A DNA stretch of 34,546 bases from positions 1 through 34,546 of the IMG/VR virus record IMGVR_UViG_3300028844_001594. One strand, 5' to 3'. This DNA comes from a virus. Taxonomy: Duplodnaviria; Caudoviricetes. The notes below the pieces were generated by a model. The model worked only from the letters and a program-made list of their open reading frames with translations. It searched no databases and was not told the origin of the DNA. Shown here piece by piece: positions 12,456 to 28,600 of the stretch. The translations under genes were made by a program, and so were the position numbers. Each line of letters begins with the position of its first letter. Position 1 is the stretch's first letter.

Positions 12456-12761
12456 ATGAGTTTAACTGGAACTATTACCAATACATTTGCTGGTTCTCGC
12501 AAGGGAAGTAAGTGGGTTTTTAAGCTTGATGAGAATGAGCAGAGAATTGCTACTAACTCTTTAAAGCTTACTGTTAGTGATGACCAAGAGTTACCAGCTG
12601 TTTTAACTGCAGAGAGAATTGCTAATGCTAGTAAGCAGTTAAATAACCTTAAATTCATCGCTGGTTCTGATTACCGTAAAGCCAGTGAAGAAACTCACTT
12701 CGAGGAGAGTCAGCAGATATCTGCAACTTATAAGCCTCTCCCGAAGAAGATTAGTTTCTAG
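12456..12761 (+). CDS. hypothetical protein, first gene of the early block
   Basis: 101 aa with an AGGAG SD, followed by a strong hairpin. Confidence 0.75.
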   Translation: MSLTGTITNTFAGSRKGSKWVFKLDENEQRIATNSLKLTVSDDQELPAVLTAERIANASKQLNNLKFIAGSDYRKASEETHFEESQQISATYKPLPKKISF

Positions 12762-12767
12762 AGGTTT

Positions 12768-12820
12768 TAGCCCCCTTAGTCCTTACAAGGATTGAGGGGG
12801 TTATAGGGTTTCATCCCCTA
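12768..12820 (+). terminator. tandem hairpins after the first early gene
   Basis: TAGCCCCCTTAGTCCT-TACA-AGGATTGAGGGGGTTA (long stem with G-U pairs), then TAGGG-TTTCATC-CCCTA. Confidence 0.55.
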
Positions 12821-12824
12821 AAAG

Positions 12825-12924
12825 AAATAAAAGTAAGGCAGTCAGGAGGTTGCACAGTAATGGAGACAACATCAGTGCATACCGTTTCCTACCTACCTCG
12901 ACCTAAGTGTCCTTACTTTTATTT
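12825..12924 (+). ncRNA. candidate structured RNA A
   Basis: A perfect 14-bp inverted repeat, AAATAAAAGTAAGG (12825-12838) / CCTTACTTTTATTT (12911-12924), encloses the inner pairings GGT-TGCAC / GTGCA-T-ACC. A T-tract follows. Confidence 0.45.
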
Positions 12925-12969
12925 TTTTATTAAGGTTACATAGTAATTAACAAAACAATGGAGTAAATA

Positions 12970-13188
12970 ATGATTGATACATTAATGCCAATAGCAATGT
13001 TAGTAGCAGTAATATTAATCTTTTGTCTTTTATGGACACTTAATATGTTAAGACAAGAGCTTGAACATAGTGAGACTAAGATTAAATTACTATACAGGCG
13101 AATTGAAGATGTAAATAATGAGATGTTTATGATTAAGGAAGAAAGAAACGAGTATCTTGATAAGTTAAGTGAAATCAAAAACAGATGA
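12970..13188 (+). CDS. membrane-anchored coiled-coil protein
   Basis: N-terminal TM helix followed by a coiled coil. GGAG SD. Confidence 0.7.
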   Translation: MIDTLMPIAMLVAVILIFCLLWTLNMLRQELEHSETKIKLLYRRIEDVNNEMFMIKEERNEYLDKLSEIKNR

Positions 13189-13322
13189 ATAGTATACCGC
13201 CTTGGGGTAAAAAAGAATTAGTATTATGGCTAGTTAAAAAGAATCCTAATACACCCAAGAGCAAGTTTATAGCAATGAAAAAGAATCGTCTTTGGGCTAT
13301 ATTCTTTAGTCAGAGTAATTAA
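13185..13322 (+). CDS. small basic protein (45 aa)
   Basis: MNSIPPWGKKELVLWLVKKNPNTPKSKFIAMKKNRLWAIFFSQSN. ATGA overlap with the previous gene. Not in the track. Confidence 0.6.
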   Translation: MNSIPPWGKKELVLWLVKKNPNTPKSKFIAMKKNRLWAIFFSQSN

Positions 13323-13420
13323 GAGATAGAAGTGGTTTTTAATCCTTGTGTGCAATTTTTATACAAAGATGACTATGAGATTGGCGTTTCATTATTCCAA
13401 ACTAACTAACCTATCTCTTA
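13320..13420 (+). ncRNA. candidate structured RNA B
   Basis: Perfect 10-bp closing stem TAAGAGATAG / CTATCTCTTA, inner pairings (TTGTGT / ATACAA), and a T-rich tail. Confidence 0.4.
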
Positions 13421-13447
13421 TATTTTTATATAGGTCTCGAGACCAAT

Positions 13448-13541
13448 AGAGTGGATACTGAAATAAAATCAGGGCGTGATGAACATGCGTGTGAAGCGTA
13501 AAACATTGAAACCATGGTTTTCCTTGGTTTATATCCACTCT
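13448..13541 (+). ncRNA. candidate structured RNA C
   Basis: Perfect 10-bp closing stem AGAGTGGATA / TATCCACTCT, with inner hairpins CTGA..TCAG and AAACCATGG-TTTT-CCTTGGTTT (one mismatch). Confidence 0.4.
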
Positions 13542-13548
13542 TTTATAA

Positions 13549-13596
13549 AGGGAGTATAGTTTTGATTGTTCTATGCTCCCTAAAGTTTAATTTTTT
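13549..13596 (+). terminator. hairpin followed by a T-rich tract
   Basis: AGGGAGTATAG...CTATGCTCCCT stem (one G-U pair), followed by aaagtttaatttttt. Confidence 0.4.
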
Positions 13597-13665
13597 ATTT
13601 ACCCTAAGTAATGCAAGAGCATTACCTCTATAAGAGTAAATAACATCCCTAAAAAAGGAGGTAAC

Positions 13666-13839
13666 ATGAGCAGAGTAGAGGAAGCTATCGATACATTGAT
13701 ACAACAACTTGAAAACGCAGGTTACGAAACAAAAGACGCTATCAAAAAGGTAAACGAAGACCTTGATGGTGCTAAAGCAGAAATACAAGCTTATAATGAC
13801 TGGGTTCAAGATAGAATCGAGTTGTATTTGGAAGTATGA
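13666..13839 (+). CDS. small acidic helical protein (57 aa)
   Basis: MSRVEEAIDTLIQQLENAGYETKDAIKKVNEDLDGAKAEIQAYNDWVQDRIELYLEV. Near-perfect AAGGAGGT SD and an ATGA overlap with the next ORF. Not in the track. Confidence 0.8.
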   Translation: MSRVEEAIDTLIQQLENAGYETKDAIKKVNEDLDGAKAEIQAYNDWVQDRIELYLEV

Positions 13840-14108
13840 ATTACGCTTTAATTGAATGTATTACCTTTCATCGCAAGATACAAAAAGGAGAATACAAAGG
13901 AGACAATACATATAAGAATAATCTTATCGGCATCTATAAGAGTTACGAAGAAGCTGAGTTTATCCTGTCTAAAGCTAAAAAGCATTTAGTCGCAAAGGAT
14001 GCAGTTAAGAGTATTGAGTATGATATTGTGAAGACAGATAAACAGGTAACAACAAGCAAGGTTGGTAATTATATCAATCGTAATAAACAGGAGGTTAGTA
14101 ATGGCTAA
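13836..14108 (+). CDS. hypothetical protein
   Basis: 90 aa, coupled to both neighbours. Contains 'LIGIYKSYEEAE', a pattern common in small phage proteins. Confidence 0.7.
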   Translation: MNYALIECITFHRKIQKGEYKGDNTYKNNLIGIYKSYEEAEFILSKAKKHLVAKDAVKSIEYDIVKTDKQVTTSKVGNYINRNKQEVSNG

Positions 14109-14334
14109 CAACAATCCAGTAGTAATAAGATACATGGCGTATCACACAGGTGGAGTACCAAAGACTGTAGAGGCATCTACCCCAGCAGAGATTGCTGAAA
14201 AAGAAGGATTTGGCATTGACGATAATCAAGTAGCGATTTTCGTTGGTGGTAAATCTGCAACTGCAAACACTCGATTAAAAGAGGGTCAGGTTGTATCTTT
14301 TCAGAAAGCTCGCCAAGAGTCTGGTAATAAATAA
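14101..14334 (+). CDS. ubiquitin-like (beta-grasp, ThiS/MoaD-like) protein, 77 aa
   Basis: True start is the ATG at 14101 (AGGAGG at 14089-14094). Pattern 'AIFVGGKSA..NTRLKEGQVVSF' matches the Ubl/ThiS 'i.vNG....d..L.eGd.v.f' pattern. Tail ...QESG-NK. Adjacent to E2/JAB/E1-like genes. Confidence 0.8.
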   Translation: MANNNPVVIRYMAYHTGGVPKTVEASTPAEIAEKEGFGIDDNQVAIFVGGKSATANTRLKEGQVVSFQKARQESGNK

Positions 14335-14343
14335 CCTGTTACA

Positions 14344-14377
14344 CCCCCCTAAGCAATTAGGGGGGTTTAATTTTTTT
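14344..14377 (+). terminator. intrinsic terminator between the Ubl and E2-like genes
   Basis: CCCCCCTAA-GCAA-TTAGGGGGG (9-bp stem, GNRA loop), followed by TTTAATTTTTTT. Confidence 0.75.
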
Positions 14378-14398
14378 CTAATTTAAAAGGAGTTAAAC

Positions 14399-16390
14399 AT
14401 GAAAATAACACACGAAAGATTAAATATTGATTCAACAATATTATGTCCGATATCTGTTACAAAAAAAAGTGCAACAACAATGCTTAACAGATTCTTTAAT
14501 TTAAATGAAGACGAATCTTTTTGGGAAACATTTCTAAATGATTATGAGTTGTTTTATGATTATGACCATAAAAGTTTCTTTTATATCGTAAGAAATGCAA
14601 GACTAAGGTTGCGTAAATATTTTTATATGCCACCTATATATGTAAAGCTTAATTTACTACAAAAAGAACAATTTGGAAGCTTAGAGCCTCAACATATTAG
14701 ATATCTTCAAAAGCTTGATTATTATAGCAATACAATAAATGAAGATGATTCAAAATCTTATGAATTTGATAATGAATTTTCATTTATGTCAGCTTATCAT
14801 CCTCATGTAGATAGCAATGCTTGCGCATGTTATGGTAGATGGGCTACTCAAATACAAGAAGTATATAACGAAGGTTTGGTTTATCCATTTATGGAAACTA
14901 TTAGAGCTTATTTAAATGACTATAATGGTAGAAGTACATTTTACAGTATAGACCCTTATGCTTTTGATGATAAACATACTTTTCAAATGCTAAATTTTGG
15001 TACCTATAAAGAAGATTGGCAATCTATAAACACTAATATGGAATTTATTTATGGCACTCAATGGTTAATGGATTTTTGTGAATATAAAAATCTTAACTAT
15101 GATATGTATTATAAAATATTTCTCTATTATCAAAATAATGATGTAAGAATGTTTGATAATGCTGACCAATTAAATAGCATATTGTTTAATGATGTATTAA
15201 GTCAATACTTAACTGATTACAGTGAATATATTCATTACAAATACGACATGACAGAAGAAGAATGGACTGTTTACAGAGAGTTTAAAGAATGGCTTAAGCC
15301 TTATACTCAAGAAGGAATAAACAAGTGGTTAACTGAATTTATTCTTAATCATTATGAATCTCCTATTAAAAATGGAGATATTAAGGTAATACAGTATGCA
15401 ATAGGAACTAGTATATACAAATTAAACAACATGGAGCATCTTTGGGATAAATTAAAACCCATATTAGAAAGATATTCTGCTATAAGTGTTATTAATAGCT
15501 TGAGCAATGTTTTACTTAATGATGATACTAGAGGATATGGAAGACGAAGAGAAGCCAATCTGTTTTTATTATTATCTACCAACATTAAACCCAGTCAAAT
15601 CTATGAATCATATATTAAATGGGCTGAATATAAGATTGGTAATGATAATACATCGTTTTTGATGGAGAATTACATCAATATATCTAATACATCTAGAATG
15701 CAAAGTCAAGGTTCTTTTGTAAATACCGATATGGAATTAAAGACTATAAATTATGATATTGATTGGGAAGGTATACAGATAGAAGGTTTTAGGCACACAT
15801 GGATTAATAACTCTAAAGAGCATTGGAAACAGATATTAGGATTAAAATTAGTTAGAGAGCTAAATCGTTATTGTAATAATATAGTTGAAGACAATGATAT
15901 AACCATTAGCAATAGTGATAAAAAATATCTTTTAGAAATAATGCTTAATAGAGAAGAAGTGGTTGAAACAACAAGTGTTAAAAAACCTAAAACAGAAGAT
16001 ATAATTAGACTTGGACTTGTATCAATGCTTAAATACCATAATCTAGGCTTAACAGCTGATGTTTACCATGAGTTAGTTGATTTCTTATCAAAACAAAACA
16101 CTGAATATAGTACAAATGAGTTAGTAACATTAATGTCAGGAATTGTAAATAATGACCAAAATAATCTAGAACAAAAAAGAGAAAATATGATAGATATGAT
16201 ATACATAGCAATACCAGATTTTCCAAAAAAGCTAGATGATTTTCACGATTATACAATGAAATCTTGGGCAATAATACTAAAAAATGCATTTGCACACTAT
16301 AAAACAAATATAACAAATAAAATAAAGGAGTTAAACAATGTACTTAACAATACCTCTAGAGATATATCTCAAACTGAACTATTTTCTTAA
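14399..16390 (+). CDS. large protein with an N-terminal E2/UBC-like conjugating domain
   Basis: H134-P-H-V-D-S-N-A-C-A-C144-Y-G has the same spacing as the E2 motif HPNxxxxGxICL (Cys 10 residues after the His). The ~500 aa C-terminal region is unassigned. AAGGAG SD. Confidence 0.65.
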   Translation: MKITHERLNIDSTILCPISVTKKSATTMLNRFFNLNEDESFWETFLNDYELFYDYDHKSFFYIVRNARLRLRKYFYMPPIYVKLNLLQKEQFGSLEPQHIRYLQKLDYYSNTINEDDSKSYEFDNEFSFMSAYHPHVDSNACACYGRWATQIQEVYNEGLVYPFMETIRAYLNDYNGRSTFYSIDPYAFDDKHTFQMLNFGTYKEDWQSINTNMEFIYGTQWLMDFCEYKNLNYDMYYKIFLYYQNNDVRMFDNADQLNSILFNDVLSQYLTDYSEYIHYKYDMTEEEWTVYREFKEWLKPYTQEGINKWLTEFILNHYESPIKNGDIKVIQYAIGTSIYKLNNMEHLWDKLKPILERYSAISVINSLSNVLLNDDTRGYGRRREANLFLLLSTNIKPSQIYESYIKWAEYKIGNDNTSFLMENYINISNTSRMQSQGSFVNTDMELKTINYDIDWEGIQIEGFRHTWINNSKEHWKQILGLKLVRELNRYCNNIVEDNDITISNSDKKYLLEIMLNREEVVETTSVKKPKTEDIIRLGLVSMLKYHNLGLTADVYHELVDFLSKQNTEYSTNELVTLMSGIVNNDQNNLEQKRENMIDMIYIAIPDFPKKLDDFHDYTMKSWAIILKNAFAHYKTNITNKIKELNNVLNNTSRDISQTELFS

Positions 16391-17240
16391 ACAATTTCCA
16401 ACAACAGAATGGTCAGGGCCAGCATGGTATAAGCCTCATTATAGAAAAGGAGAGAAATTTCCTAAAGGCTTTACCCTTGTTCACTTTCACCCTGTTGATT
16501 TAGGACATGGTACAGCAACAACAATAGAAGCTGAAGATACTGCAAAAATACTTCAGAAAACTTGGAAAGATTATCCAGAAACAGAAAAATGTATGATGGG
16601 AATTATACATTCTCACCATAATATGGGTGCGTTCTTTAGTGGAACGGATAAAAACTGTTTAAAAGATAATGCTCCAATACAAAACTTTTATTGTTCAACA
16701 GTTGTAGCAAGTAAAAAAGAAAAGTTCGCATTTGCTATTAGCTATCAAGACCAATACGGTAAAACGCATTTAATAGAATCTAAATCAGAAGATATTAACA
16801 TGCAAATGCCTAATAAAAGCAAAGAACAAGATAAATGGGCTAGAATAGCTAAGAAAATAAAAGATGATAAAAAAGCAACTACTGTTACCAACTGGTATGA
16901 CAAAGGAGGCAGTCTTAATCAAGGCAATCTCTTTCCCATACAAAATAGACCCAGTCAATTCGGTAGTTACTATACTAATAATTTTAGTATTAATGCTTAT
17001 GATGAATACGATACTGTTATAACTGGTCAAGAAAAAATCATAGATAAACACAGAAAAGATTCTATGACAGCTGATGACCCTGATTCTGCTTATATATCAA
17101 GTTTATATAAAAGTATGAATGCAGGAGAAATAGACCAATTATTAGTAGAAGAAGAACTTGAGCTAATGAATCTAAATCCAGCAATAGTAATAGATGAAAT
17201 AGGTAAGGAGGACAAAGATGAATCAAAAGCATCTGCGTAA
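16338..17240 (+). CDS. JAB/MPN+ (JAMM) metalloprotease, deubiquitinase-like
   Basis: Catalytic Glu in 'TEWSG' and a complete H-x-H-x7-S-x2-D motif, 'HSHHNMGAFFSGTD'. Acidic low-complexity C-terminal tail. Confidence 0.88.
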   Translation: MYLTIPLEIYLKLNYFLKQFPTTEWSGPAWYKPHYRKGEKFPKGFTLVHFHPVDLGHGTATTIEAEDTAKILQKTWKDYPETEKCMMGIIHSHHNMGAFFSGTDKNCLKDNAPIQNFYCSTVVASKKEKFAFAISYQDQYGKTHLIESKSEDINMQMPNKSKEQDKWARIAKKIKDDKKATTVTNWYDKGGSLNQGNLFPIQNRPSQFGSYYTNNFSINAYDEYDTVITGQEKIIDKHRKDSMTADDPDSAYISSLYKSMNAGEIDQLLVEEELELMNLNPAIVIDEIGKEDKDESKASA

Positions 17241-17961
17241 TAAAGACCTTATACCACAAGAAAAGCTCAACGATGTAACAGTCGTTGGGCTAGGTGGTAT
17301 AGGTAGTAGTGTTATTATGTTATTAGCAACTATGGGCTTTAAGTTTATAAGAGGCTATGATAATGATAACATGGAAGAGCATAATTTTGGCACTACATTA
17401 TATCCAGAAATATGGTATAATGAGGTTGATAATTCTAAGGCTTCAATGGCTGAAAAAATTATCAAAAGCTACGGAAGTAGTAATGTTGAAATAGACATGC
17501 AACAAACTTTGTTTACAGGAGAAGGTCAAGTACTTTCTCCTAAGACAATAGTTTGTACAGATAGTATGAGCAGTAGAAAGTTAGTATATAACAAGTGGCT
17601 TGAAAGAGAAGATAGAGAAGTGTTTATAGACCTTAGGATGGATGCACTTTCTATGAGCTGTGTAACAGCAACGCAAGGACTTGATAAATATCAAGATTAC
17701 TGGTTTCCTAATGGAGAGAGTGGGCAAGAAGCTCCCTGTACTATGAAACATACAATATTCTGTGCAAACCTAATTAGTGGTATTGGTGTGAATCAACTGT
17801 TTAATTACTTGACAGGGAGACCTTTTTATGGCTATATTTGGCAAGGTCTTTCGCCTTTAGTAATAAAGACAGAAGACTTCAATAGTGGAGAAGTAAATAA
17901 CACAAACAATATAACTGAGGAGAATGCGTATGCAAATACAAACTCGTACAGTTACAACTAA
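17218..17961 (+). CDS. E1-like ThiF/MoeB-family adenylyltransferase
   Basis: 'VTVVGLGGIGS' nucleotide-binding loop, 'YDNDNMEEHN', 'CTDSMSSR', 'IDLRM', and candidate catalytic Cys174 in 'EAPCT'. Confidence 0.9.
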   Translation: MNQKHLRNKDLIPQEKLNDVTVVGLGGIGSSVIMLLATMGFKFIRGYDNDNMEEHNFGTTLYPEIWYNEVDNSKASMAEKIIKSYGSSNVEIDMQQTLFTGEGQVLSPKTIVCTDSMSSRKLVYNKWLEREDREVFIDLRMDALSMSCVTATQGLDKYQDYWFPNGESGQEAPCTMKHTIFCANLISGIGVNQLFNYLTGRPFYGYIWQGLSPLVIKTEDFNSGEVNNTNNITEENAYANTNSYSYN

Positions 17962-18769
17962 TTGGAACGAACAACCTGCGGGGCTGACTTGGTATTTTAT
18001 AGGTCAGCCCAAAACAGGTAAAACCACAGCGGCCGCTAACTGGTCTGCAAAAGGTGCTAAAGGTGTCTTAATGATAGATACTGACCTTGGTGCAGACTTT
18101 GTTGACGGTGCTAATGTTGTAACAGTTACATCACTTAACCCACCTTTTACAGGAGAAGGGGATGATAGAAAAATGATACCCCCTCTTGAACGAGGATTTT
18201 ACCATAGAGTTGGCCCTAAAAGAGGCGAACCAATGGAGGTTTATTCTTTATTCGAGGTATATACTTGGATAAAAGATAATTGGAAATCTCTAGGCTATGA
18301 AAGCTTGGTAATAGACACAATAGATACTATTAACGAATGGATACAGGAAGCTGTATGCGAAGAGTTAGGTATAAGTGCAATGGGTCAAGGAGAATGGGGA
18401 GCTGATTGGGGTAAAGCAAGGAAGAAAAATGTGGACATAGTTAAGAGATTACAAACTCTAATGAAAGCACATGGCTCTAACTTAATACTCACTTCCCATA
18501 GTAAACAATCCCAAATGAATGATGGCAAAGTGCAATTAAGTCCTGAATTACCAAGAGGTCTTGGATATGCGCTATGTGCTAAAGCCGATGTAATAGGATA
18601 CTCAACCGTAGTTAAAGATGAATTGATACCAAAAGTATCTTTTCAAGCTTATGACGAAAGAACAGTTGGCTCTAGACTTAAGCCATTAAATGGGCTTGTT
18701 CTGCCTTTTACATATACTGATGTAAATAAGGCAATAACCGAATACAAAGAAGATGAAGGAGAAAGCTAA
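17930..18769 (+). CDS. Sak4-like/AAA_24 P-loop ATPase (recombination/annealing protein)
   Basis: Walker A 'GQPKTGKTT', 'IDTDLG', Walker B 'LVIDTID', 'ILTSH', 'ADVIGY'. Start moved to the ATG at 17930, 7 nt after GAGGAG. Confidence 0.82.
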   Translation: MQIQTRTVTTNWNEQPAGLTWYFIGQPKTGKTTAAANWSAKGAKGVLMIDTDLGADFVDGANVVTVTSLNPPFTGEGDDRKMIPPLERGFYHRVGPKRGEPMEVYSLFEVYTWIKDNWKSLGYESLVIDTIDTINEWIQEAVCEELGISAMGQGEWGADWGKARKKNVDIVKRLQTLMKAHGSNLILTSHSKQSQMNDGKVQLSPELPRGLGYALCAKADVIGYSTVVKDELIPKVSFQAYDERTVGSRLKPLNGLVLPFTYTDVNKAITEYKEDEGES

Positions 18770-19380
18770 TGGCGTTATTACAATCAAGTAGTAATACAAA
18801 AATGAATAGTGATTTTACTGGTTATTTTGAAGCTGGTATAGAAAGAGTCGAAGATAAGAGCGGTCAATATGACTGGGCTGATTGTTGGCTTGATGTACAC
18901 TTTAAAATAAAAAATAGTAAATACCCACAAGTTCATTCTATCAAAGGTTCTTATGAAAAGAATCCTGACGGGACAGTAAGTATTAATAGAGTAGTTAGAC
19001 AGTTTAACTACTTAAAAGATGCTATCGGTTTCGAAGGTGGAATCAATACTGAAGGAGACTGGGAAATGGCTAATGGTGAAAAAATAGACAGTATAGAGTC
19101 TACTTTAAACAGCTATATTTCAGAAATGAACGGTAGTGATAATCCTTTGCTAGAACCGCCTCATAACTACCTAATATATGTTTATAGAGAAGCACCAAAA
19201 AAACAAGGTGATAAAACATATAAAAGGGTGTTGGGTAAAATAGTCGATAATGATAATGCAGGTAGAAGTGACTTAGAAAGTTATGTAACCTACATGAAAC
19301 AAAAAGGCTATTTAAAGGAAGCGTCTGAAAACGACATCCCTTCCACACCAACTCAACCTCAAAGCGATATGCCATTTTAA
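18769..19380 (+). CDS. single-stranded DNA-binding protein (probable)
   Basis: Follows the Sak4-like gene. Beta-rich body and a flexible tail ending 'SDMPF', similar to SSB C-termini. Confidence 0.65.
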   Translation: MALLQSSSNTKMNSDFTGYFEAGIERVEDKSGQYDWADCWLDVHFKIKNSKYPQVHSIKGSYEKNPDGTVSINRVVRQFNYLKDAIGFEGGINTEGDWEMANGEKIDSIESTLNSYISEMNGSDNPLLEPPHNYLIYVYREAPKKQGDKTYKRVLGKIVDNDNAGRSDLESYVTYMKQKGYLKEASENDIPSTPTQPQSDMPF

Positions 19381-21179
19381 TGGAGCTTTATGTTGAAGTA
19401 GCTATAGGGAGCCCCCACCAAAGGGGGCTTCTTATGACTTTAGGTAAATATGAAAAAAATATGTCTGAGTTTTTAGAGCGGGGACAATACATACCCATAT
19501 ACAGGTCTCATTATCTATATGATAAAGATGCTTATCTATTTGTACAAGATAACAAATCACTAAAAGACTACACGGGTAAAAGGTATGTTGATAATATACT
19601 TATTGATATTGACCGCAAAGATGATAGTGACGATAGAGTATTAGAAAAAGCTAAGCTTGCTGTAAATGAACTTAATTCAATGGGACTAAAAGATGGTAAT
19701 TATAGTATCTTTTATAGTGGTACAGGTTACCATATATTAGTTTCTGCTGATTGTTTTGACTTTACACCAAGTGAACAGTTACCTTATATAGTAAAACAAA
19801 CAATGACACAGCTATTTACTACAGTTAATATAGACCCTGCTGTGTATATGAGAACTTCTATATATAGAGAACAAGCTACTAAAAATGCTAAATCAAACTT
19901 GTTTAAAACAAAGCTATTAACACAAGGTTTTATGCAATTAACTTTTGATAAAATAAAAAAGCTTGCATCAAAACCTTCAAATATAGACTGGAAAGAAACT
20001 CTTTGGGGTGATGGCAGTTTAGAAGACAAAGTAAAGACTAATGTAGAGACTGTTCGTTCTTTTAAAGCTGTACAAGAACCTACAAAAGTTGCACCTTGTG
20101 TTCAACAAATGTTTGCTGAAGGCCCTAATGAAGGCAATAGAAATAATGTTATATTGCGTATGGCTTCGCATTTTAGACGAAATGGTATACCCTCTGATGC
20201 TACAAAAGCATCCTTACTACACTGGAACAATAATCAACTCCGTGAAGAGATTGTATTAGAAAAAGTAGAAAGTGTATACAATAACGGGTATCAATACGGT
20301 TGTCAAGATGTTGAAATGAAAGCTAGATGTAAAACGCATTGTATACATTATAAAAAGAAAGACTATGACATAGAAGTTAAAGACTTTCAACAACTACAAA
20401 AAAGACTAGAAGAAAGAATGTCAACTGACTTTAGTGGGAAAACAATAAATTTATCAAAGATATTTGGGTTACCAGATGTTGATTGTACAATTTATCCCGG
20501 TGAGTTAGTTACTATATTTGGGCCTACTGGCGCAGGTAAAACTACTGTTGCTCAAAACATTATCTTAGGGTATAATTCTGCTCAAGACAGAATAGACCAA
20601 GATTCACAACTAAATACTTTGTATTTAAGTTTAGAATTGAGTGATTGGTATATGCATAAAAGGCATATTCAAATAGTCGCTGATGTAGATAAACAACAAG
20701 TCGAAGGAGATGTTTCTAAAATAGCAGAAGACCACAAAGACTTACTAGACCATGTTGTTATACAAACTGTTCAACCAACCTTAGATAGTATTCAAACAAA
20801 AATAAGAGAACTAGACCCTCAGGTTGTTGTGATAGATTATATAGACTTAATAGACCCGGGCCCTACAAAGCGTGGAGAGTACGAAGCTATTAGATATATT
20901 AGTCATTCACTTAGTAATATGGCAGTTAATAACGACATTATTATTATACAGCTATCACAAGTAGCTAGAGAATATAGTAAAAATGATGTTCTTGATTTAT
21001 ATGCTGGTAAGGGTAGTGGTGCTATAGAAAATGCATCTCGTAAGGTATTAGGTATTAATGGGCAAGCAAAAGACCCTGTTAAATATCTATCCTTATTTAA
21101 AAACAGTGATGGTGAACTTTTTAGTGATATTCCACTAAGATGGAGACCTTCATTTAGACTAAGGAGAGATTATGAATGA
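19380..21179 (+). CDS. AEP primase(-polymerase) fused to a DnaB-like SF4 helicase
   Basis: AEP motifs 'LIDID', 'YSGTGYH', 'DPAVY'; PriCT-like 'EGNRNN'; helicase motifs 'GPTGAGKT', 'YLSLE', 'VVIDYIDLI', 'QLSQ', 'GSGAIEN'. Confidence 0.88.
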   Translation: MELYVEVAIGSPHQRGLLMTLGKYEKNMSEFLERGQYIPIYRSHYLYDKDAYLFVQDNKSLKDYTGKRYVDNILIDIDRKDDSDDRVLEKAKLAVNELNSMGLKDGNYSIFYSGTGYHILVSADCFDFTPSEQLPYIVKQTMTQLFTTVNIDPAVYMRTSIYREQATKNAKSNLFKTKLLTQGFMQLTFDKIKKLASKPSNIDWKETLWGDGSLEDKVKTNVETVRSFKAVQEPTKVAPCVQQMFAEGPNEGNRNNVILRMASHFRRNGIPSDATKASLLHWNNNQLREEIVLEKVESVYNNGYQYGCQDVEMKARCKTHCIHYKKKDYDIEVKDFQQLQKRLEERMSTDFSGKTINLSKIFGLPDVDCTIYPGELVTIFGPTGAGKTTVAQNIILGYNSAQDRIDQDSQLNTLYLSLELSDWYMHKRHIQIVADVDKQQVEGDVSKIAEDHKDLLDHVVIQTVQPTLDSIQTKIRELDPQVVVIDYIDLIDPGPTKRGEYEAIRYISHSLSNMAVNNDIIIIQLSQVAREYSKNDVLDLYAGKGSGAIENASRKVLGINGQAKDPVKYLSLFKNSDGELFSDIPLRWRPSFRLRRDYE

Positions 21180-21744
21180 TGTAATCTACAAAAAGAAAGA
21201 AACAGCTAAGGAAATAGTTGGAGAGTATATGGATGTTATCATGGAGTTATCAATAGTTGATGCTGATGATAGAGAACAATGCACAAAACTAGAACTAAAG
21301 CGTGATTCTTTACAAACAAAAATGAAAGATAAAGTCAAAGGTATTGACTATTTTTCACAAAACATAACGCAAAGAGACTATTTATTAAGTGCAGAAATAG
21401 AAGCTCATAAAGATGAAATAGAAAGATTAAGGACTAGACAAAAAGCCTTAACAGCTACTAATGATTACTTAAATAAAATACTCTTGCCTATGTTAATTGA
21501 AGAACTTGGTGATAATAATGGTGTATTAGAAACAGATACAGCTAGGTATAAACTATATGAAACATACGGAAGTGTGATAGTTACAGACCAAGATAAAGTT
21601 CCTAATGACTTTATAAAAACCAAGATAACTCAAACAATAGACAAAGCTAAAGCAAGAAAGGTATGTATGCAACTTCATAGAGAAAATACAGAATTACCTG
21701 ACGGCTTAAGTATAACCAAAGTCAAAAGAGTAAAACGGTCTTGA
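21172..21744 (+). CDS. Gp157-like (Siphovirus Gp157/Gam-like) coiled-coil protein
   Basis: Motifs 'KDEIERLRTRQKAL', 'SVIVTDQDKVPNDF', 'IDKAKA', 'LPDG'. Confidence 0.7.
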   Translation: MNDVIYKKKETAKEIVGEYMDVIMELSIVDADDREQCTKLELKRDSLQTKMKDKVKGIDYFSQNITQRDYLLSAEIEAHKDEIERLRTRQKALTATNDYLNKILLPMLIEELGDNNGVLETDTARYKLYETYGSVIVTDQDKVPNDFIKTKITQTIDKAKARKVCMQLHRENTELPDGLSITKVKRVKRS

Positions 21745-21938
21745 TACGAAAGTATTTAATAGACCTTAACTGGACAGAGGCAGGGTTTCTTATAGATTTC
21801 TTATACTTTTTTAGTATAGGAGCTATATTATACAATGCCCCTGCCAGTTATGACTCAAACAAAGAAACAAACTATATATTAGTTCAGTTTAGATTTTGGA
21901 TAATAACAACAAACCTAGAACTAGGAGTTCAAATATGA
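21741..21938 (+). CDS. hypothetical hydrophobic protein
   Basis: TTG start overlaps the previous stop (TTGA), and its stop overlaps the next ATG. Confidence 0.55.
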   Translation: MIRKYLIDLNWTEAGFLIDFLYFFSIGAILYNAPASYDSNKETNYILVQFRFWIITTNLELGVQI

Positions 21939-22132
21939 AATTACTGTATAACCCATTTAAGAAAAAAAATACTAATAATTCTATATGGAATAGACTTAGG
22001 CAATTAAGTTCTTTTACATGGGAAAATAAAGTAAAAATAGATAAATTATCATCTATAATTAATGAAATGCAGTTGATTATAGAAAGTCTTACTAAACCTA
22101 AAAAAAGAGGAAGACCTAAGAAAAATGCATAG
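21935..22132 (+). CDS. small basic protein with a C-terminal AT-hook-like motif
   Basis: Starts at ATG 21935 (AGGAG at 21923-21927) and ends KPKKRGRPKKNA. Confidence 0.65.
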   Translation: MKLLYNPFKKKNTNNSIWNRLRQLSSFTWENKVKIDKLSSIINEMQLIIESLTKPKKRGRPKKNA

Positions 22133-22289
22133 TTTACCCATAGGTGGAGACCAAGTTGATTACAAATGCACAGAGTGCTGGAATGATTCTTTAATTTGGG
22201 AAGAATATGGGAATAGTAAGTCTGATGAATCAGAGCTTGGTACTTTTTGTGAAAAGTGCGAAGATGTTAAATTACCAGACGAACTATAA
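22125..22289 (+). CDS. small zinc-ribbon protein (54 aa)
   Basis: MHSLPIGGDQVDYKCTECWNDSLIWEEYGNSKSDESELGTFCEKCEDVKLPDEL, with two CxxC motifs. Not in the track. Confidence 0.65.
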   Translation: MHSLPIGGDQVDYKCTECWNDSLIWEEYGNSKSDESELGTFCEKCEDVKLPDEL

Positions 22290-22301
22290 ATAACTAAACT
22301 C

Positions 22302-22365
22302 GGGGGCTCCGACTTCTCCACATACCAATGCCTACACGCATAGGAGTCCCCATTATTTTGGAGAA
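22302..22365 (+). promoter_or_regulatory. candidate SD-sequestering pseudoknot leader
   Basis: Stem GGGGGCTCC (22302-22310) / GGAGTCCCC (22343-22351). The loop sequence TTCTCCA (22314-22320) is complementary to TGGAGAA (22359-22365), just upstream of ATG 22369. Confidence 0.45.
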
Positions 22366-22368
22366 AAA

Positions 22369-22908
22369 ATGTCAAACCTTAAAGATTTAAAAGACCTTGA
22401 TAAAACTGCAAGGACATTAATAAAACAATTTGATGGCACTATAGATAGTGATGGTGACTTTGAATTAAGAAATACAAATAGAATAGACATAGCGCAAATA
22501 AAAGCAGAAGAATATCTAGATAAAAAACAAATACCATATAAAAATATAGGATTTGATAGTAAAGAAGATAGAATACCTTCTAATATATGGTTTAATATGC
22601 CAGAGTTTTTAAGATGTATGCCTGATATGTTTGTATTTGTAAATAATACTTTTCATTTTTTAGAAATAAAAGGATGTAGAGATTCAGTTAAGTTTAAAAT
22701 AGATGATTTACATCAATATAATTTATGGAATGGTATAGCTCCTGTATTAATGTTTATATATTCTACTAAATTAGATAAAAATTACTTATTGAATTTAGAC
22801 TTAATATGGGATAACTTACATAATGGTACTTGGGGAAGGTATAATGACAATAATAAGTTATATATAGATATACCCTGTAGTACATTAAATAATTACGAAA
22901 GAGAGTAA
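22369..22908 (+). CDS. PD-(D/E)XK family nuclease
   Basis: 'MPDMFV...FLEIKG' is a PD-x(n)-EIK motif, preceded by the 'AEEYL' helix. Confidence 0.75.
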   Translation: MSNLKDLKDLDKTARTLIKQFDGTIDSDGDFELRNTNRIDIAQIKAEEYLDKKQIPYKNIGFDSKEDRIPSNIWFNMPEFLRCMPDMFVFVNNTFHFLEIKGCRDSVKFKIDDLHQYNLWNGIAPVLMFIYSTKLDKNYLLNLDLIWDNLHNGTWGRYNDNNKLYIDIPCSTLNNYERE

Positions 22909-23342
22909 TGAATAAACAAGACTTTAAAAAAGTACTAGTACCTGTACATGGTACCCATTGGCAAAAGGCTTATAAAAAGCTATTGCGTAAGATAAGTGCA
23001 TTAAAGTCTAGTTTAAAAAGAAGAGCGATAGAATCAGGCACTAAGTTTGATATAGAGCTAATTGAGATAAAACAAATGTTTCTAGATATTTATGGTAATG
23101 ATTGTAAATATTGCCCTAAAAAGCTTAATTATAGAAACATAGCTTGTGACCATATAATACCATTAGTTAAAGGAGGAGATAGTTTAATTAAAAACCTGCA
23201 ACTAATATGTAAAACATGCAACACAAGAAAAGGGCCACTTAATGAAGATGATTTTAGTTTACTAGTTCATTTAGTAATGGAATTACCTGAAGAATTAAGT
23301 AGCTATGTAATGCGTAAACTAGCCAAAGGAGGCAGATACTAA
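22908..23342 (+). CDS. HNH endonuclease
   Basis: 'CKYC...DHIIPLVKGG...NLQLICKTCNTRKG'. Confidence 0.9.
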   Translation: MNKQDFKKVLVPVHGTHWQKAYKKLLRKISALKSSLKRRAIESGTKFDIELIEIKQMFLDIYGNDCKYCPKKLNYRNIACDHIIPLVKGGDSLIKNLQLICKTCNTRKGPLNEDDFSLLVHLVMELPEELSSYVMRKLAKGGRY

Positions 23343-23677
23343 TGAGAGTAAAAACACAAAACCCAATTAAACTTCAAACAAAACAAAGAGGATGGAATTA
23401 TGATAAAAGATACACAATGAAAAATGTAAGTAATACAGAACTATTAAAATTCTATCTAATTATGATATCTAACGGCCAATTAGAACTTGGTTCAGCTGGC
23501 TATAAAAGAATGTGTGAGATATTGCAAAAAGTAATAGTAGATGAAATAAAAGTTAAAAGAGTAAGTTATCTAAGAAACTCTCCTGCAAGAAAGGAAGCAT
23601 CAAGAATCATTGCAACTGCGAATACTTATATTAAAGAGTATGAGTCATTTATGAAAAAGATTGGCGCTCAAGCATGA
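23342..23677 (+). CDS. hypothetical protein
   Basis: 111-aa ORF, translationally coupled at both ends. Confidence 0.7.
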   Translation: MRVKTQNPIKLQTKQRGWNYDKRYTMKNVSNTELLKFYLIMISNGQLELGSAGYKRMCEILQKVIVDEIKVKRVSYLRNSPARKEASRIIATANTYIKEYESFMKKIGAQA

Positions 23678-23886
23678 ATCAACCAAATGCTACAATTAAA
23701 CTTAATCTTAGTGAGTTAAATGTACTTCTTAAATCTTTAAGAACAGCAGGGATGGATAAAAGTGATTTATTCTTGTTTATTGATAATACTATAAATAAGT
23801 TAGAAGCCATGAAGCAAGAGCAATTAGATAAAGATATACACGAAGTAACTAACGGTTTTTGTCAACCGGGAGTTAATTGTGAGTAA
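23674..23886 (+). CDS. hypothetical protein
   Basis: 70-aa ORF with an ATGA overlap and a C-terminal CxxxxxC. Confidence 0.65.
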   Translation: MNQPNATIKLNLSELNVLLKSLRTAGMDKSDLFLFIDNTINKLEAMKQEQLDKDIHEVTNGFCQPGVNCE

Positions 23887-24073
23887 AAAAAACTTAGCCT
23901 TACTGCATTGTGCCAATTATAATAGAGGTAAATGCAGTGGGGTTTTGTTTGTTAGAAGTGAAAGTGGCAATCAAATAGGTCAAATAATTAACTCTGACTA
24001 TGAACAAAAAGAATGTTTCATAGATAAGGGTTGTGAATATTACGATAAATGCGTAAGACCTATTATCGTTTAA
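23879..24073 (+). CDS. small Cys-rich protein
   Basis: GTG start after GGGAG. Five Cys residues (CANY..GKC...C...C..Y..C). Confidence 0.6.
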   Translation: MSKKNLALLHCANYNRGKCSGVLFVRSESGNQIGQIINSDYEQKECFIDKGCEYYDKCVRPIIV

Positions 24074-24173: not shown

Positions 24174-25607
24174 TTATTCATTGTCTTTTAAATAACTATA
24201 ACCAAGTAAACCTGAACTTGCTAAGCCTGCAATACCTGCCCCTGCTTGCACTCTATTCCTCATAAAGTAATTGTTGTACTGTGCAAAACCTTTTTGGTTT
24301 TTAGCATTTTTTACTATATTATCATGTTCTTTATATAACTTATTAATATTTACCCTATCTGTTTTAGCTAAGGGACTATAATTAGATAATATTTTTACTT
24401 GCTCTGCTTTTGTTGGGTCTAATTGTTTAGGTGTAGGCATAGCAAATCCACTATCTTTAATAGCTTTTCTTTGTGCTCTTCTAGCCATAATTTCTGCGTA
24501 TGCATCTGTATTATCAGAACCCTGCAAAGACTCTTTTAGTAAATCATCTGCCTCATCGTATAGCTCTTGTATGTTTTTTTTAGCCTTAGGTATACTTATT
24601 TCTCTAGCTTTAGTTATATTAAGTGTACTTCTACCTTTAGTTTCTGCTGATAAACCAAATAAATCAGGCCTATCACTTGCTAACATTTTTATCTTAGTTG
24701 GGTCTTTTTTAGGATTAAATTTTATTAAACCTTTATATCCACCCCAATCATAATTAGGTTTACCCTTAGGAGACATAGATATATAAATATCATCACCAAC
24801 CTGCGATGTATTAAAATCATTAAATATAGCTTTTACAGCTTTATAATTTCTATCCTTAGGTGTTTTTATATTATCCAATCTTTGTAATCCATTATATACC
24901 CTTCTGTCAAATTGTATCATTCTTAATACATCACTATGGGGTACATTTTTATATACCGCAAATTGATTATATAAAGTAGGGGTTTTTTGAAACCCTATAC
25001 CAAGCATTTTTAAGTCTTGTCCACTAAAATCATCAAGCACATTATACTTGTTTTTCATATCAACTAAAACGCCTTTGGCTGTACCACCTTCTCTGTTTAT
25101 AAATCTATTTATACCTTTATATGGTGATTTACCTGTGTACATATATGTATTTCTATAATCATTAGTAAGTTTAGCAAACACTTTTTTATCGGCATTTTTT
25201 ATTAAGCCTCTAGCTTTGGTATAACTTATTTCATCTCTTTTAAACATATCTATAGCTTCTTTTTTAACTATTTTAGATTGTTGATATATATCACTGCTAA
25301 CTTTAGATACACCAGTTTTTCTATATGCAAAAGATTGTGATGGACTTAATGATTGTTGAGCCATTCTTGCAGTGCCTTTAATCCCTTCTTTGCTTGCTAA
25401 AAATGCTTTACCTACTCCTCCTACTCCTTTACCATAAAAACCCTGAAGAAAGTTATTCATGCTTGATACAAACAAATTTCTAGCTCTACCTCCACCAAAT
25501 AATATTGCTCTACTAGCTAATCTTGCACTTGGTACAGCAATACTTGCTACTGTTGCAAGTTTTAATAAGTTATCTGCAAATTCATTATTATCTTTTTGTT
25601 CAGCCAT
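24174..25607 (-). CDS. basic virion/ejection-type protein, hypothetical
   Basis: 477 aa, TAATG-coupled to the giant gene. Ala/Gly-rich hydrophobic segments at both ends. Confidence 0.55.
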   Translation of the reverse strand: MAEQKDNNEFADNLLKLATVASIAVPSARLASRAILFGGGRARNLFVSSMNNFLQGFYGKGVGGVGKAFLASKEGIKGTARMAQQSLSPSQSFAYRKTGVSKVSSDIYQQSKIVKKEAIDMFKRDEISYTKARGLIKNADKKVFAKLTNDYRNTYMYTGKSPYKGINRFINREGGTAKGVLVDMKNKYNVLDDFSGQDLKMLGIGFQKTPTLYNQFAVYKNVPHSDVLRMIQFDRRVYNGLQRLDNIKTPKDRNYKAVKAIFNDFNTSQVGDDIYISMSPKGKPNYDWGGYKGLIKFNPKKDPTKIKMLASDRPDLFGLSAETKGRSTLNITKAREISIPKAKKNIQELYDEADDLLKESLQGSDNTDAYAEIMARRAQRKAIKDSGFAMPTPKQLDPTKAEQVKILSNYSPLAKTDRVNINKLYKEHDNIVKNAKNQKGFAQYNNYFMRNRVQAGAGIAGLASSGLLGYSYLKDNE

Positions 25608-28600
25608 TACATTATTCCAGAAAATAAATCAGATGCTTTAGCTCCGGGAGGAGACCAAGATTCTTCACCCTTTTCTTCCTTTTCCTTTTCCTTTACACTT
25701 AGTCTCTTTGCACTTACTACTGGTATACCCGTTAACTTGTCTATACCATAATAAGGATTATCTGTTAAACCACCCGGGCCAACAAGGTCTCTTGCTAATC
25801 TTCCAAATGGAAACATTGTCCAAGCGTAATAATTGCCCATCTTTTCCCAATCATCATTAATAAAACCATTAAGTATAGGCCCTGATAACCTAAATGATGG
25901 AGGCGTAATAAGTTGTAATGGAGCAAGAGCAGTTGGGTAAGAACCAAAAAAAGCTCTGTCTCTTTCTTTTTCATTTCCAAATACCCAATCAGATAAATCT
26001 TGGAACCAAGCATATGGTTGTGGCATTTGTGAGCCAAATAATGAATACATAAACATTGAACCAAGTGCTAAAGATACCATATCGGCCATCATAAGCCTTT
26101 TAAAGCGCTCATATTGCTGACTATTTGGGTCTACACCATAGATACTAGCTTCTTTTAAAATCTTATTTCTAAATCTTACACTATTCCAAGCCCATAATTG
26201 AAACCTAGTCATCACCTTACCCATAGCAGTACCTGCAAATAAAGGCCTAAATGGAACGCTATATAAAAATTGAGTAGCCTTAACCCCTCTTTTACCAAGT
26301 TCTATTAAGAAAGGATGGTCTCTTTCAAGTATTCTACCGCCAAGTTTATTTTTTGCTTGTATATAATGAGCTATAAATGAATCTCTACGCAATGCTCTTT
26401 CTGGCATTGACATAAATTTACCAGCTACATCCATCATTCCTTGACTTATTCCGTGCTTTTTACCTAAGTCTCTAAATTTAACATCAGGTAAATCAGGGTC
26501 TTTCTTAACAGCTTGTTTAAAGTCTTTTAAGAAGGAATTAAATTTAGCTCCAGTTAACCTTGGGTTGGCACCTATTTCACGAATTATAAATTCTTCAATG
26601 ATGCCTAGCTCTCTAACCCAAGTATTAACATCGTTCCAAGTTTTAAATTTGCTATCAATATTCCTTCTTAAAAAATCTAAATCTTTAGCTTTTCTAAAAT
26701 TATTCCACCCTGCATTAACAACAGTCATTTGTGTACCGCCTAAATAGTTACCAACACTTGACTTAGGGTGAGCAAGTAATGTAGCTAATGAATACTTAGC
26801 TTCTGCATTACCTATATTTATTACAGTTTGTGCATCTATGCGACCTAAGTCTTTTAACTCAGGTGGTAAATCTTTACCTACTAAATTTAACTTTTTAGCT
26901 ATTTTATCAAACCTTTGTGCTACCATATTATCAGCAAAAGCACTATAAAGTGTGCCTTTAATGTTCATATTCTTGTTTTCATATAATTGAGTAGGTATAA
27001 TACTAGGGAATCCTAAAGCTTGTTGACTGTAAAGTTTAAAAAAGTTCATCCAATTACTTTTTAATTCTGCAGGCATATCTCTATGTTTATCAGCAAACTT
27101 GACTATAGTTTCTCTAGCCATAAGCTGACCCACTTGTCTATATAACATTCTGTTAATACTATTACTATATTCAAGATAAGCTTCTGGGCTTAAATTCCAA
27201 CCATCAATATGATTTTCTCTTGAGAACTGACTGCCTATTTTACCTGTGTTTTCAAACCAAGTTATTTGCTCTTTTAAATCTTTTTTACCTTGATATTTAA
27301 CAATAGCATCTGTTACAGTTTCCCATGCTTCATTTTGTACATCCATTTCTACAAAATCACCACTAAGTTGTTTAGTTTGCATATAAACCTTAGCAATCTT
27401 TTCTTTCTTTTCAGCTTCGGGTAGGTTGCTTTCCCAAATCATTTTAATCTTTTTTCTTAAATCACCTGTAACAATTCCTCTTTCAAACATTTTAGATACA
27501 TGCGGGAAATAACCAAACAGTGCTTTCTTGTCTTTTACATATCCTTCAAAACCTAATTTACCCGTGCTTTGTAATGGCATTCTTGTTAATGCAGAGCTAG
27601 CTCCATTTCTTAAGGTTTTTCTTATTGGATTTTTATCTCCAGCTTGTCTTTCTGCGTTTCTTAATTGTTGTATCTGAAAGCTTAATATAATTTTACGCAT
27701 ACCATCTATGCCAATTTTATCCTCAGGCATAGCTTTACCATGTTTCATATGGTCTAAGAAAAAATCAATTACCTTTTTTCTATTAAAAAGGGGTATTTCT
27801 GTTTTATATCTATTCCCACTTGCATCAACACCTTCTATGTATTCTACATTTCCTCTACCATCTTTATTAGCAAAACTATTTACAAAGTCTACATCTCCTG
27901 TTAGCTTAACCCAGTTTTCTTGGTTTTTAACTGCTACTAAATCTTGTATTTCTCTAACAACTTCAAATGCAGGTTTTCTTTCACCGCCTACCATAGTTAG
28001 TAATTTTTCTCTGTTTTTATCCCATTCTACTTTTTCAGTCCATTCTTTTAGCCTGTTTTCATATGTTTGTGCGTAACTTTCTGATATAGCGTCTCCATCT
28101 TTAGCTCTTTGTCTTAATCTTGGTATTTCAAACTTTGCTTCTGCATCAGCCATAGCATACCACCATAAGTTTTCACCTAATTCAGTATTCATGTACTTTT
28201 CAGTAGCTTCACCCCATTTACGCTCTTCTCTTTGGCCTTGCATAGTACCAAGTTCTTGAGATAAATATATATGATTTTGTATTTCACCCATCCATCCTTG
28301 AGCTGATTTAGATTTACCCGTAACCCAATTACCGTATTTATCTTTAAATATAGTCTCTGAATCATTCCACTCTATTTCATGTCTCATTATGTCTCTTTCA
28401 ATAGCCTCAGGAAACATATGATAAAATCTTTTAGCTAATTTAGGAAATTTACCCTCTACTTTTGCAAAAGTTCTTTGAAACCAAGTACCATCTCTATGGC
28501 TTTTAAATATGTTATTTACAATTTTCCAATCAGTAGCGTTCATTACATTGATATCTTTATTAATCATATCTCTTACAATGTAATTTAAATTTTCTGCAGT

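Follow-up and report, generated by a model that had tools for sequence, protein, structure and literature searches.

A probable ubiquitin-like conjugation cassette of a seawater phage with predicted clamp-binding motifs on two of its enzymes

In the literature surveyed, prokaryotic ubiquitin-like conjugation has so far been characterised as a bacterial anti-phage defence; what, then, would a virus that owns the pathway use it for? This question is raised by IMG/VR record IMGVR_UViG_3300028844_001594, a 34.5-kb record of an uncultured tailed phage from seawater, which we analysed over its full length of 34,546 nucleotides (hereafter, the window). A reading of this DNA made without database searches (the sequence-only reading) had proposed that four consecutive, co-oriented open reading frames (ORFs) at 14101..17961 encode a ubiquitin-like protein (Ubl), an E2-like protein, a JAB protease and an E1, together forming a ubiquitin-like conjugation cassette. 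We found the four ORFs at exactly these positions (Table 1), and protein families, folds, conserved residues and gene order all support the proposal: very probably, the cassette conjugates its tag to proteins. Two of its enzymes carry motifs of the type that binds the bacterial beta clamp, and we put the chances at about even that the cassette serves a reversible, clamp-tethered tagging of proteins at a borrowed host replisome.

Table 1. The cassette and its surroundings, in window coordinates
Feature	Coordinates	Strand	Description
Ubl, ubiquitin-like tag precursor	14101..14334	+	77 amino acids (aa); beta-grasp; S74-G75, two-residue tail NK
Terminator-like hairpin and T-run	14343..14376	+	Between Ubl and E2-like genes; 10-bp stem, 6 G-C pairs
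E2-like protein	14399..16390	+	663 aa; N-terminal UBC-like domain with H134-P-H136...C144, large helical region, disordered tail
JAB/JAMM metalloprotease	16338..17240	+	300 aa; PF14464, 27.4 bits (cut-off 25)
QTELF, clamp-binding-type motif	16370..16384	+	E2-like C-terminus, within the overlap with the JAB start
QGNLF, clamp-binding-type motif	16920..16934	+	Variable, poorly aligned linker behind the JAB domain
E1, single-domain ThiF-family	17218..17961	+	247 aa; PF00899, 43.8 bits (cut-off 28.1); GxGxxG loop, C174
Sak4-like annealase, SSB-like protein, AEP primase-DnaB helicase fusion	17924..21179	+	Directly 3' of the cassette
Plus-strand block	12456-24073	+	Cassette, then Sak4, SSB-like, AEP primase-DnaB helicase, Gp157/Gam-like and HNH genes
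Minus-strand genes		-	Terminase, P22-like portal, SU10-type capsid, endolysin (Pfam/PHROG)
Giant ORF	25607-34546	-	At least 2979 aa; no Pfam or PHROG match

Four genes of a probable conjugation pathway

The small ORF had been taken to encode a beta-grasp protein, and its AlphaFold2 model is indeed a beta-grasp (predicted local distance difference test, pLDDT, 79), for which the best Foldseek matches were SUMO1, ISG15 and SUMO2 (E 6e-4 to 1e-3); an E2-SUMO-Siz1-PCNA structure entry was also among the matches. Pfam, PHROG, NCBIfam and PADLOC returned no match for the protein, and none of 35 Ubls matched the PRTRC models. Across 35 aligned sequences S74 and G75 are invariant and the tails beyond them vary, and a terminal Ser-Gly occurs in 64 of 65 distinct Ubls, 59 of them with a tail and 5 ending there. 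The NK tail of the window Ubl is accordingly predicted from its sequence to need trimming. Some relatives have Ubls fused to longer C-terminal parts beyond Ser-Gly (L050:5371-5820, L027:3905-4210, L081:2193-2870), from which JAB cleavage would free a second protein. A hairpin with T-run comparable to that behind the window Ubl gene lies 3' of Ubl in 14 of 68 distinct downstream regions; such a hairpin would yield tag transcript in excess of enzyme transcript.

Both the JAB and the E1 score above their Pfam cut-offs, in line with the families first assigned to them, and the motifs read from them, E24...H91-x-H93-x7-S101-x2-D104 in the JAB and GLGGIG and PC174 in the E1, are present. The five JAB residues are invariant in 30 sequences and the complete motif is found in 114 of 127 distinct JABs; the protease is predicted to trim the tag and to strip it from targets. 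No PADLOC model matched it, and its domain had no plasmid match. In many relatives (for example L044:7193-8008 and L074:4488-5342) the JAB has a Tyr/Gly-rich C-terminus of the YGGYYGGY kind, a feature that the window JAB lacks. The E1 contains just four cysteines (113, 148, 174 and 182) and no CxxC zinc pairs. C174, invariant in the alignment and kept in all 113 distinct E1s that cover the site, is the cysteine for which we infer a catalytic role.

For the E2-like protein, the earlier claim stands as regards its residues and less firmly as regards its fold. The HPH-x7-C144 motif is present, and the two His, the Cys and a Gly are invariant in an alignment that is only 21% conserved overall, while an E2/UBC fold is modestly supported. 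Its structural matches include the BubB chain and Cap2, and a Foldseek search with the full 663-aa model gave nothing below E 0.001. The protein was without match in Pfam, PHROG, NCBIfam and PADLOC, and when 49 E2 members were compared with Pfam, no E2 family was among the matches listed (25 of 39 families). The helical region matched no known family, an Atlas search having given nothing usable; it is highly variable, and the E2-like proteins of relatives range from 412 to 712 aa. Residues 657-663 have a pLDDT below 50 and form a flexible tail.

To follow the gene order across viral loci, as the sequence-only reading had suggested, we took the best 80 of 142 E1 matches. Of the 45 loci that extend 3350 bases or more upstream of E1, near-duplicates included, 44 keep the order Ubl-E2-JAB-E1, and the one exception (L027) was recovered once a broader profile was used. 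A second, more distant set showed the four-gene order by profile in 20 of 23 loci. Genes for the SSB-like protein and the primase-helicase lie downstream in all 66 loci with 2500 bases past E1, just as Sak4, SSB-like and primase-helicase genes follow the cassette in the window. In a test that depends less on E1, based on the best 80 of 544 primase-helicase matches, 29 viral loci had 6.2 kb upstream (8 of these contigs were already in the earlier set), and all four genes were found by profile in 20. In seven others JAB and E1 are present next to upstream ORFs that the profiles did not recognise; a loss of Ubl and E2 was considered for these and rejected, as in the six inspected (all but L183) the Ubl is divergent and ends in GG, and a long ORF stands at the E2 position.

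Two records, L190 and L200 (G007 and G008), each 96% complete, have no E1 match. Together with the locus counts, these records indicate that the cassette is typical of the clade yet can be lost, and they offer a natural comparison for its effect. In both, a 196-aa cysteine-bearing ORF precedes Sak4 in place of E1. Other loci vary in detail: in a sister clade (L166, L181, L182, L206, L215, L217, L218 and L224) the Ubls end in Gly-Gly plus a short tail, the ORFs at the E2 position have HPY or HPF together with an insertion, and the JABs have WWHSHH; in L131, L133, L139, L172 and L192, JAB and E1, or E1 and Sak4, lie several hundred bases to 1 kb apart.

Clamp-binding-type motifs on the E2-like protein and the JAB

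By definition, a clamp-binding motif has Gln at position 1, an aliphatic residue at position 2 (described as tolerant), no preference at position 3, Leu or Met at position 4, and Phe or Leu at position 5 or 6 (PMC11139829). QTELF at the end of the E2-like protein and QGNLF in the JAB linker both agree with it at positions 1, 4 and 5. In the E2 alignment, Q658 and L661 at the extreme end are almost invariant, and the tails of relatives read QTELF, QGELF, QVQLF, QVHLSF, QIPLFF and similar, so that by this definition both the five- and the six-residue forms of clamp ligand are present. Within the first set of relatives, 43 of 46 distinct E2 proteins carry the pattern in their last 25 residues.

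We then thinned the relatives to representatives whose JABs share less than 70% core identity (40 JABs and 33 E2 tails) and compared them with 1000 shuffles. Among the 33 E2 tails, 14 had the relaxed motif, against a shuffle average of 1.7 and a maximum of 7. In the JAB linkers, Qxx[LM]F was present in 14 of 40, each time with a different pentapeptide, where the shuffles averaged 0.48 and never exceeded 4; with eight other first residues, the linkers gave 0-3. One or both motifs occur in 20 of the 33 lineages. Outside the clade, the relaxed pattern was present in five of nine JABs (shuffle mean 1.05, maximum 5), four times as QxxLxF, and in none of nine E2 tails, one of the 10 loci not having been parsed; QAALL in the DAC15 JAB was counted as chance. 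In four genomes (L098, L112, L117 and L126) an identical pentapeptide, QATLF or QGTLF, stands in both the E2 tail and the JAB linker, as if fitted to one pocket. The L120-L138 group and L133, L134 and L213, which are without the standard motif, have other conserved E2 tail ends, of the QIENLNL and QLSIETF types, that are possibly variant docking motifs.

Modelled with the E. coli beta clamp as a stand-in, E2 residues 628-663 scored 0.69, compared with 0.14 for the best of three controls; the score mark is reached by 116 of 157 solved pairs and by 2 of 215 mismatched pairs. The runs share at least 97% of contacts, and the partner pLDDT is at least 69. Residues 655-662 contact clamp residues 172-177, 242, 247 and 360-366; H175 and M362 of the known pocket (PMC11139829) are among these. 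We consider it somewhat more likely than not that the E2 and JAB motifs bind the clamp.

Searches for PolA, PolB, Pol III alpha and beta clamp each found none in five relatives, of which, depending on the search, 4 to 5 are 90% complete or better. Four near-complete relatives list 193 ORFs; 118 of these (the larger part of two genomes and selected early ORFs of the other two, the four giant ORFs omitted) were compared with PHROGs, and neither polymerase nor clamp was among the matches, many of these ORFs having no match at all. Because the searches of relatives gave neither, the phage likely relies on host polymerase and clamp; AEP primases with polymerase activity have precedent, and an exception would arise if the phage primase also polymerises.

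Possible targets of the tag and genomic setting

Because two cassette enzymes bear predicted clamp motifs, tagging would likely take place at the host replication machinery. The JAB would first cut the Ubl precursor behind Gly75, as suggested by the conserved Gly with its variable tail and by the precedent of BilC and BubC. The E1 would adenylate Gly75, carry the tag on Cys174 and hand it to Cys144 of the E2-like protein, which, docked through QTELF, would, without an E3, link it to a lysine on the clamp or on a protein bound there. This is the weakest step of the scheme; reach or specificity would come from the variable helical region. A JAB docked through QGNLF would take the tag off again, and the hairpin behind the Ubl gene would provide surplus tag. 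The likely purpose would be to steer host polymerase and clamp to phage DNA primed by the phage primase-helicase. That the Ubl is put on the host clamp itself and taken off again, switching the replisome to viral DNA, we regard as doubtful; if true, clamp tagging would parallel the ubiquitination of PCNA in a bacterial setting and by viral means, and be shared by a large clade of seawater phages and gut crAss-like phages.

Several observations weigh against tagging at the clamp. An aliphatic residue stands at position 2 in QVHLSF and QVQLF of relatives, whereas the window has Thr there in QTELF and Gly in QGNLF, and in the second set the strict motif occurs in only 2 tails and 6 linkers, out of 41 each. 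The E2 motif overlaps the JAB start, a possible origin of the motif. Against such an origin, the base that creates its Gln is a C in 19 of the 33 representatives, with six different JAB residues encoded there, compared with 12% elsewhere before Lys codons, although the binomial value for this is overstated because the lineages are related; the JAB linker motif is free of the overlap problem. The pattern is also found in 31 of 43 Sak4 proteins, apparently for structural reasons; Sak4 QKVLEF was rejected as a clamp motif, as it lies in the protein's conserved end and is missing from the window Sak4. Clamp-peptide complexes have already been solved, so the model speaks for likeness to them and not for binding. 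Finally, the motif is missing from 13 of 33 lineages and the cassette can be lost.

This last point fits an alternative in which the cassette is a true Ubl conjugation system with targets outside replication, such as host defence proteins or competing phages, and in which Qxx[LM]F binds another partner, such as a phage protein or the E1. Conflict between phage and host is where those prokaryotic relatives that have been characterised act (PMC11601596; bioRxiv 2023.09.26.559546), and the helical region of the E2-like protein varies as an arms-race target reader might. Yet the cassette is fixed in position directly ahead of the replication genes, the clamp motif occurs in both its five- and its six-residue forms, and the E2 tail models into the clamp pocket; we consider this alternative unlikely, albeit the best placed of the three.

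Less probable still is that the clamp merely localises the enzymes while the tag goes onto the phage's own Sak4, SSB-like protein, primase-helicase or the E2-like protein itself, timing replication and recombination. From E1 through Sak4 and beyond, the genes are coupled by overlapping reading frames, and one contig from an RNA library runs from JAB to the primase-helicase, which is no proof of a single transcript; against this, relatives without E1 still have Sak4, SSB-like and primase-helicase genes, and some cassette-bearing relatives have no Sak4. A sulfur-carrier or small-molecule pathway of the ThiS/MoaD thiocarboxylate type, with no protein tagging, would suit a small, single-domain, ThiF-family E1, the weak matches of two Ubl relatives to MoaD or SAMP2 (E ~0.006) and the processing of sulfur carriers by JAB proteases (PMC1779556), but is very improbable given an E2-like protein with invariant His-x-His...Cys, an E1 far under the ThiF and MoeB cut-offs, and the lack of any rhodanese, desulfurase or synthase match in the window ORFs or the 118 ORFs of relatives, among which the E1 itself was the only match to a sulfur-pathway family.

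The cassette accounts for 3861 of the 11618 bases of the plus-strand block (33%), in agreement with an earlier estimate of about a third, and a purine-rich, Shine-Dalgarno-like stretch precedes the ATG of each of its four ORFs. Promoter-like sites are at chance level (33 observed, 33.1 expected). Downstream, Sak4 and the primase-helicase were identified by PHROG and Pfam matches; the SSB-like protein, without a family match, is provisionally named for its position and DMPF tail. Near-complete relatives measure 49-55 kb (estimated completeness 97-100%). Contigs of close relatives were found in seawater and marine metatranscriptome runs; those from RNA libraries (4 of 24 listed runs) span Ubl and JAB-E1 regions, a presence that by itself demonstrates neither transcription nor its level. 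As to the host, none of 16 pattern matches to E1 in GTDB genomes was confirmed, and a primase-helicase scan returned two 2-kb contigs of metagenome-assembled genomes and one distant match, which we rejected as host evidence.

The giant ORF has GGADLDGD near residue 1266, an octamer identical in the giant ORFs of three relatives, and no solved structure matched its central part. The octamer resembles the catalytic loop of two-barrel RNA polymerases, and the protein may be a virion RNA polymerase of crAss type.

Comparison with known systems

In searches of the open full text of PubMed Central and bioRxiv, a scope that most subscription papers lie outside, we came upon no account of a complete phage Ubl-E2-JAB-E1 cassette or of a link between one and the clamp. 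The available phage passages of PMC1779556 concern tail Ubl-JAB only, and an Asgard virus has ThiF/E1 genes alone (bioRxiv 2021.07.29.454249); a term search of the available text of PMC7824862 and PMC7886860 found no mention of JAB or ThiF.

The cassette would work like Bil, yet is neither Bil nor PRTRC. With Bil (BilABCD, types I and II) it shares the order Ubl-E2-deubiquitinase-E1 and the lack of an E3 gene and, by prediction, the four functions, a Ubl precursor cut back to its terminal Gly, and an E1 and E2 that depend on Cys (PMC11601596; bioRxiv 2023.09.26.559546). The same sources describe BilD as a multidomain IAD-AAD-CYS protein with a four-Cys zinc site, whereas the window E1 is a single 247-aa domain that lacks both this site and the inactive adenylation domain. 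Moreover, Bil is bacterial and anti-phage, while the window cassette is phage-borne, sits inside a replication module, has an E2 extended by 450 helical residues and ending in a clamp-type tail, and was not matched by PADLOC in its Ubl, E2 or JAB.

Operon type 6d (Iyer, Burroughs and Aravind, 2006) likewise encodes Ubl, E2-like protein, JAB and E1 as individual genes on mobile DNA, but its E2 lacks the classical upstream His and has a His after the Cys (PMC1779556), in contrast to H134 and H136, which precede C144 in the window. The extra alpha-helical protein of the 6d/PRTRC type has no separate gene in the window cassette, the matches to PRTRC_A and PRTRC_ThiF are weak and far under the NCBIfam cut-offs (14.9 vs 101.8 and 18.5 vs 144.75), and an Atlas lead pointed to Prok-E2_D. 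Type II CBASS Cap2/Cap3 and Bub share the E1 and JAB folds and, with modest support, the E2 fold; the window cassette differs from CBASS in having no cyclase, effector or E1-E2 fusion, and from Bub, which forms Tyr/Ser oxyesters (PMC11601596), in keeping both the E1 and the E2 cysteine.

Similar sets occur in crAss-like and other phages, among them the cultured crAss001, DAC15 and FpV4. The same order is found in gp79-gp78-gp77-gp76 of crAss001, in other Steigviridae, in Flavobacterium phage FpV4 and in DAC15, where the genes are annotated just as hypothetical, metalloprotease or thiamine biosynthesis. The crAss001 JAB is homologous to that of the window (hhalign probability 99, E 1.7e-18), and these sets share a Ubl-like N-terminus ending in K-S-G, HxH...Cys at the E2 position, a Cys-bearing E1, and QxxLxF in four of nine JAB linkers. 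They differ in that the Ubl is mostly fused to a long C-terminal part, and hhalign similarity to the window Ubl and E2 is not significant. With crAss001 and its commensal host, a cultured model is available.

Ubiquitination and SUMOylation of eukaryotic PCNA provide a functional analogy for tagging at a clamp. A phage protein that engages the host clamp through clamp-binding motifs is known in MuC of phage Mu, although MuC is a transcription factor without conjugation (PMC12867686). What would be new here is the presence of such motifs, as predicted from sequence, on both the E2 tail and the JAB linker of a phage cassette. With a predicted host-clamp address on writer and eraser alike, an uncharacterised class of cassettes gains a concrete candidate target, and the regulation of a bacterial clamp by a ubiquitin-like mark becomes a testable question.

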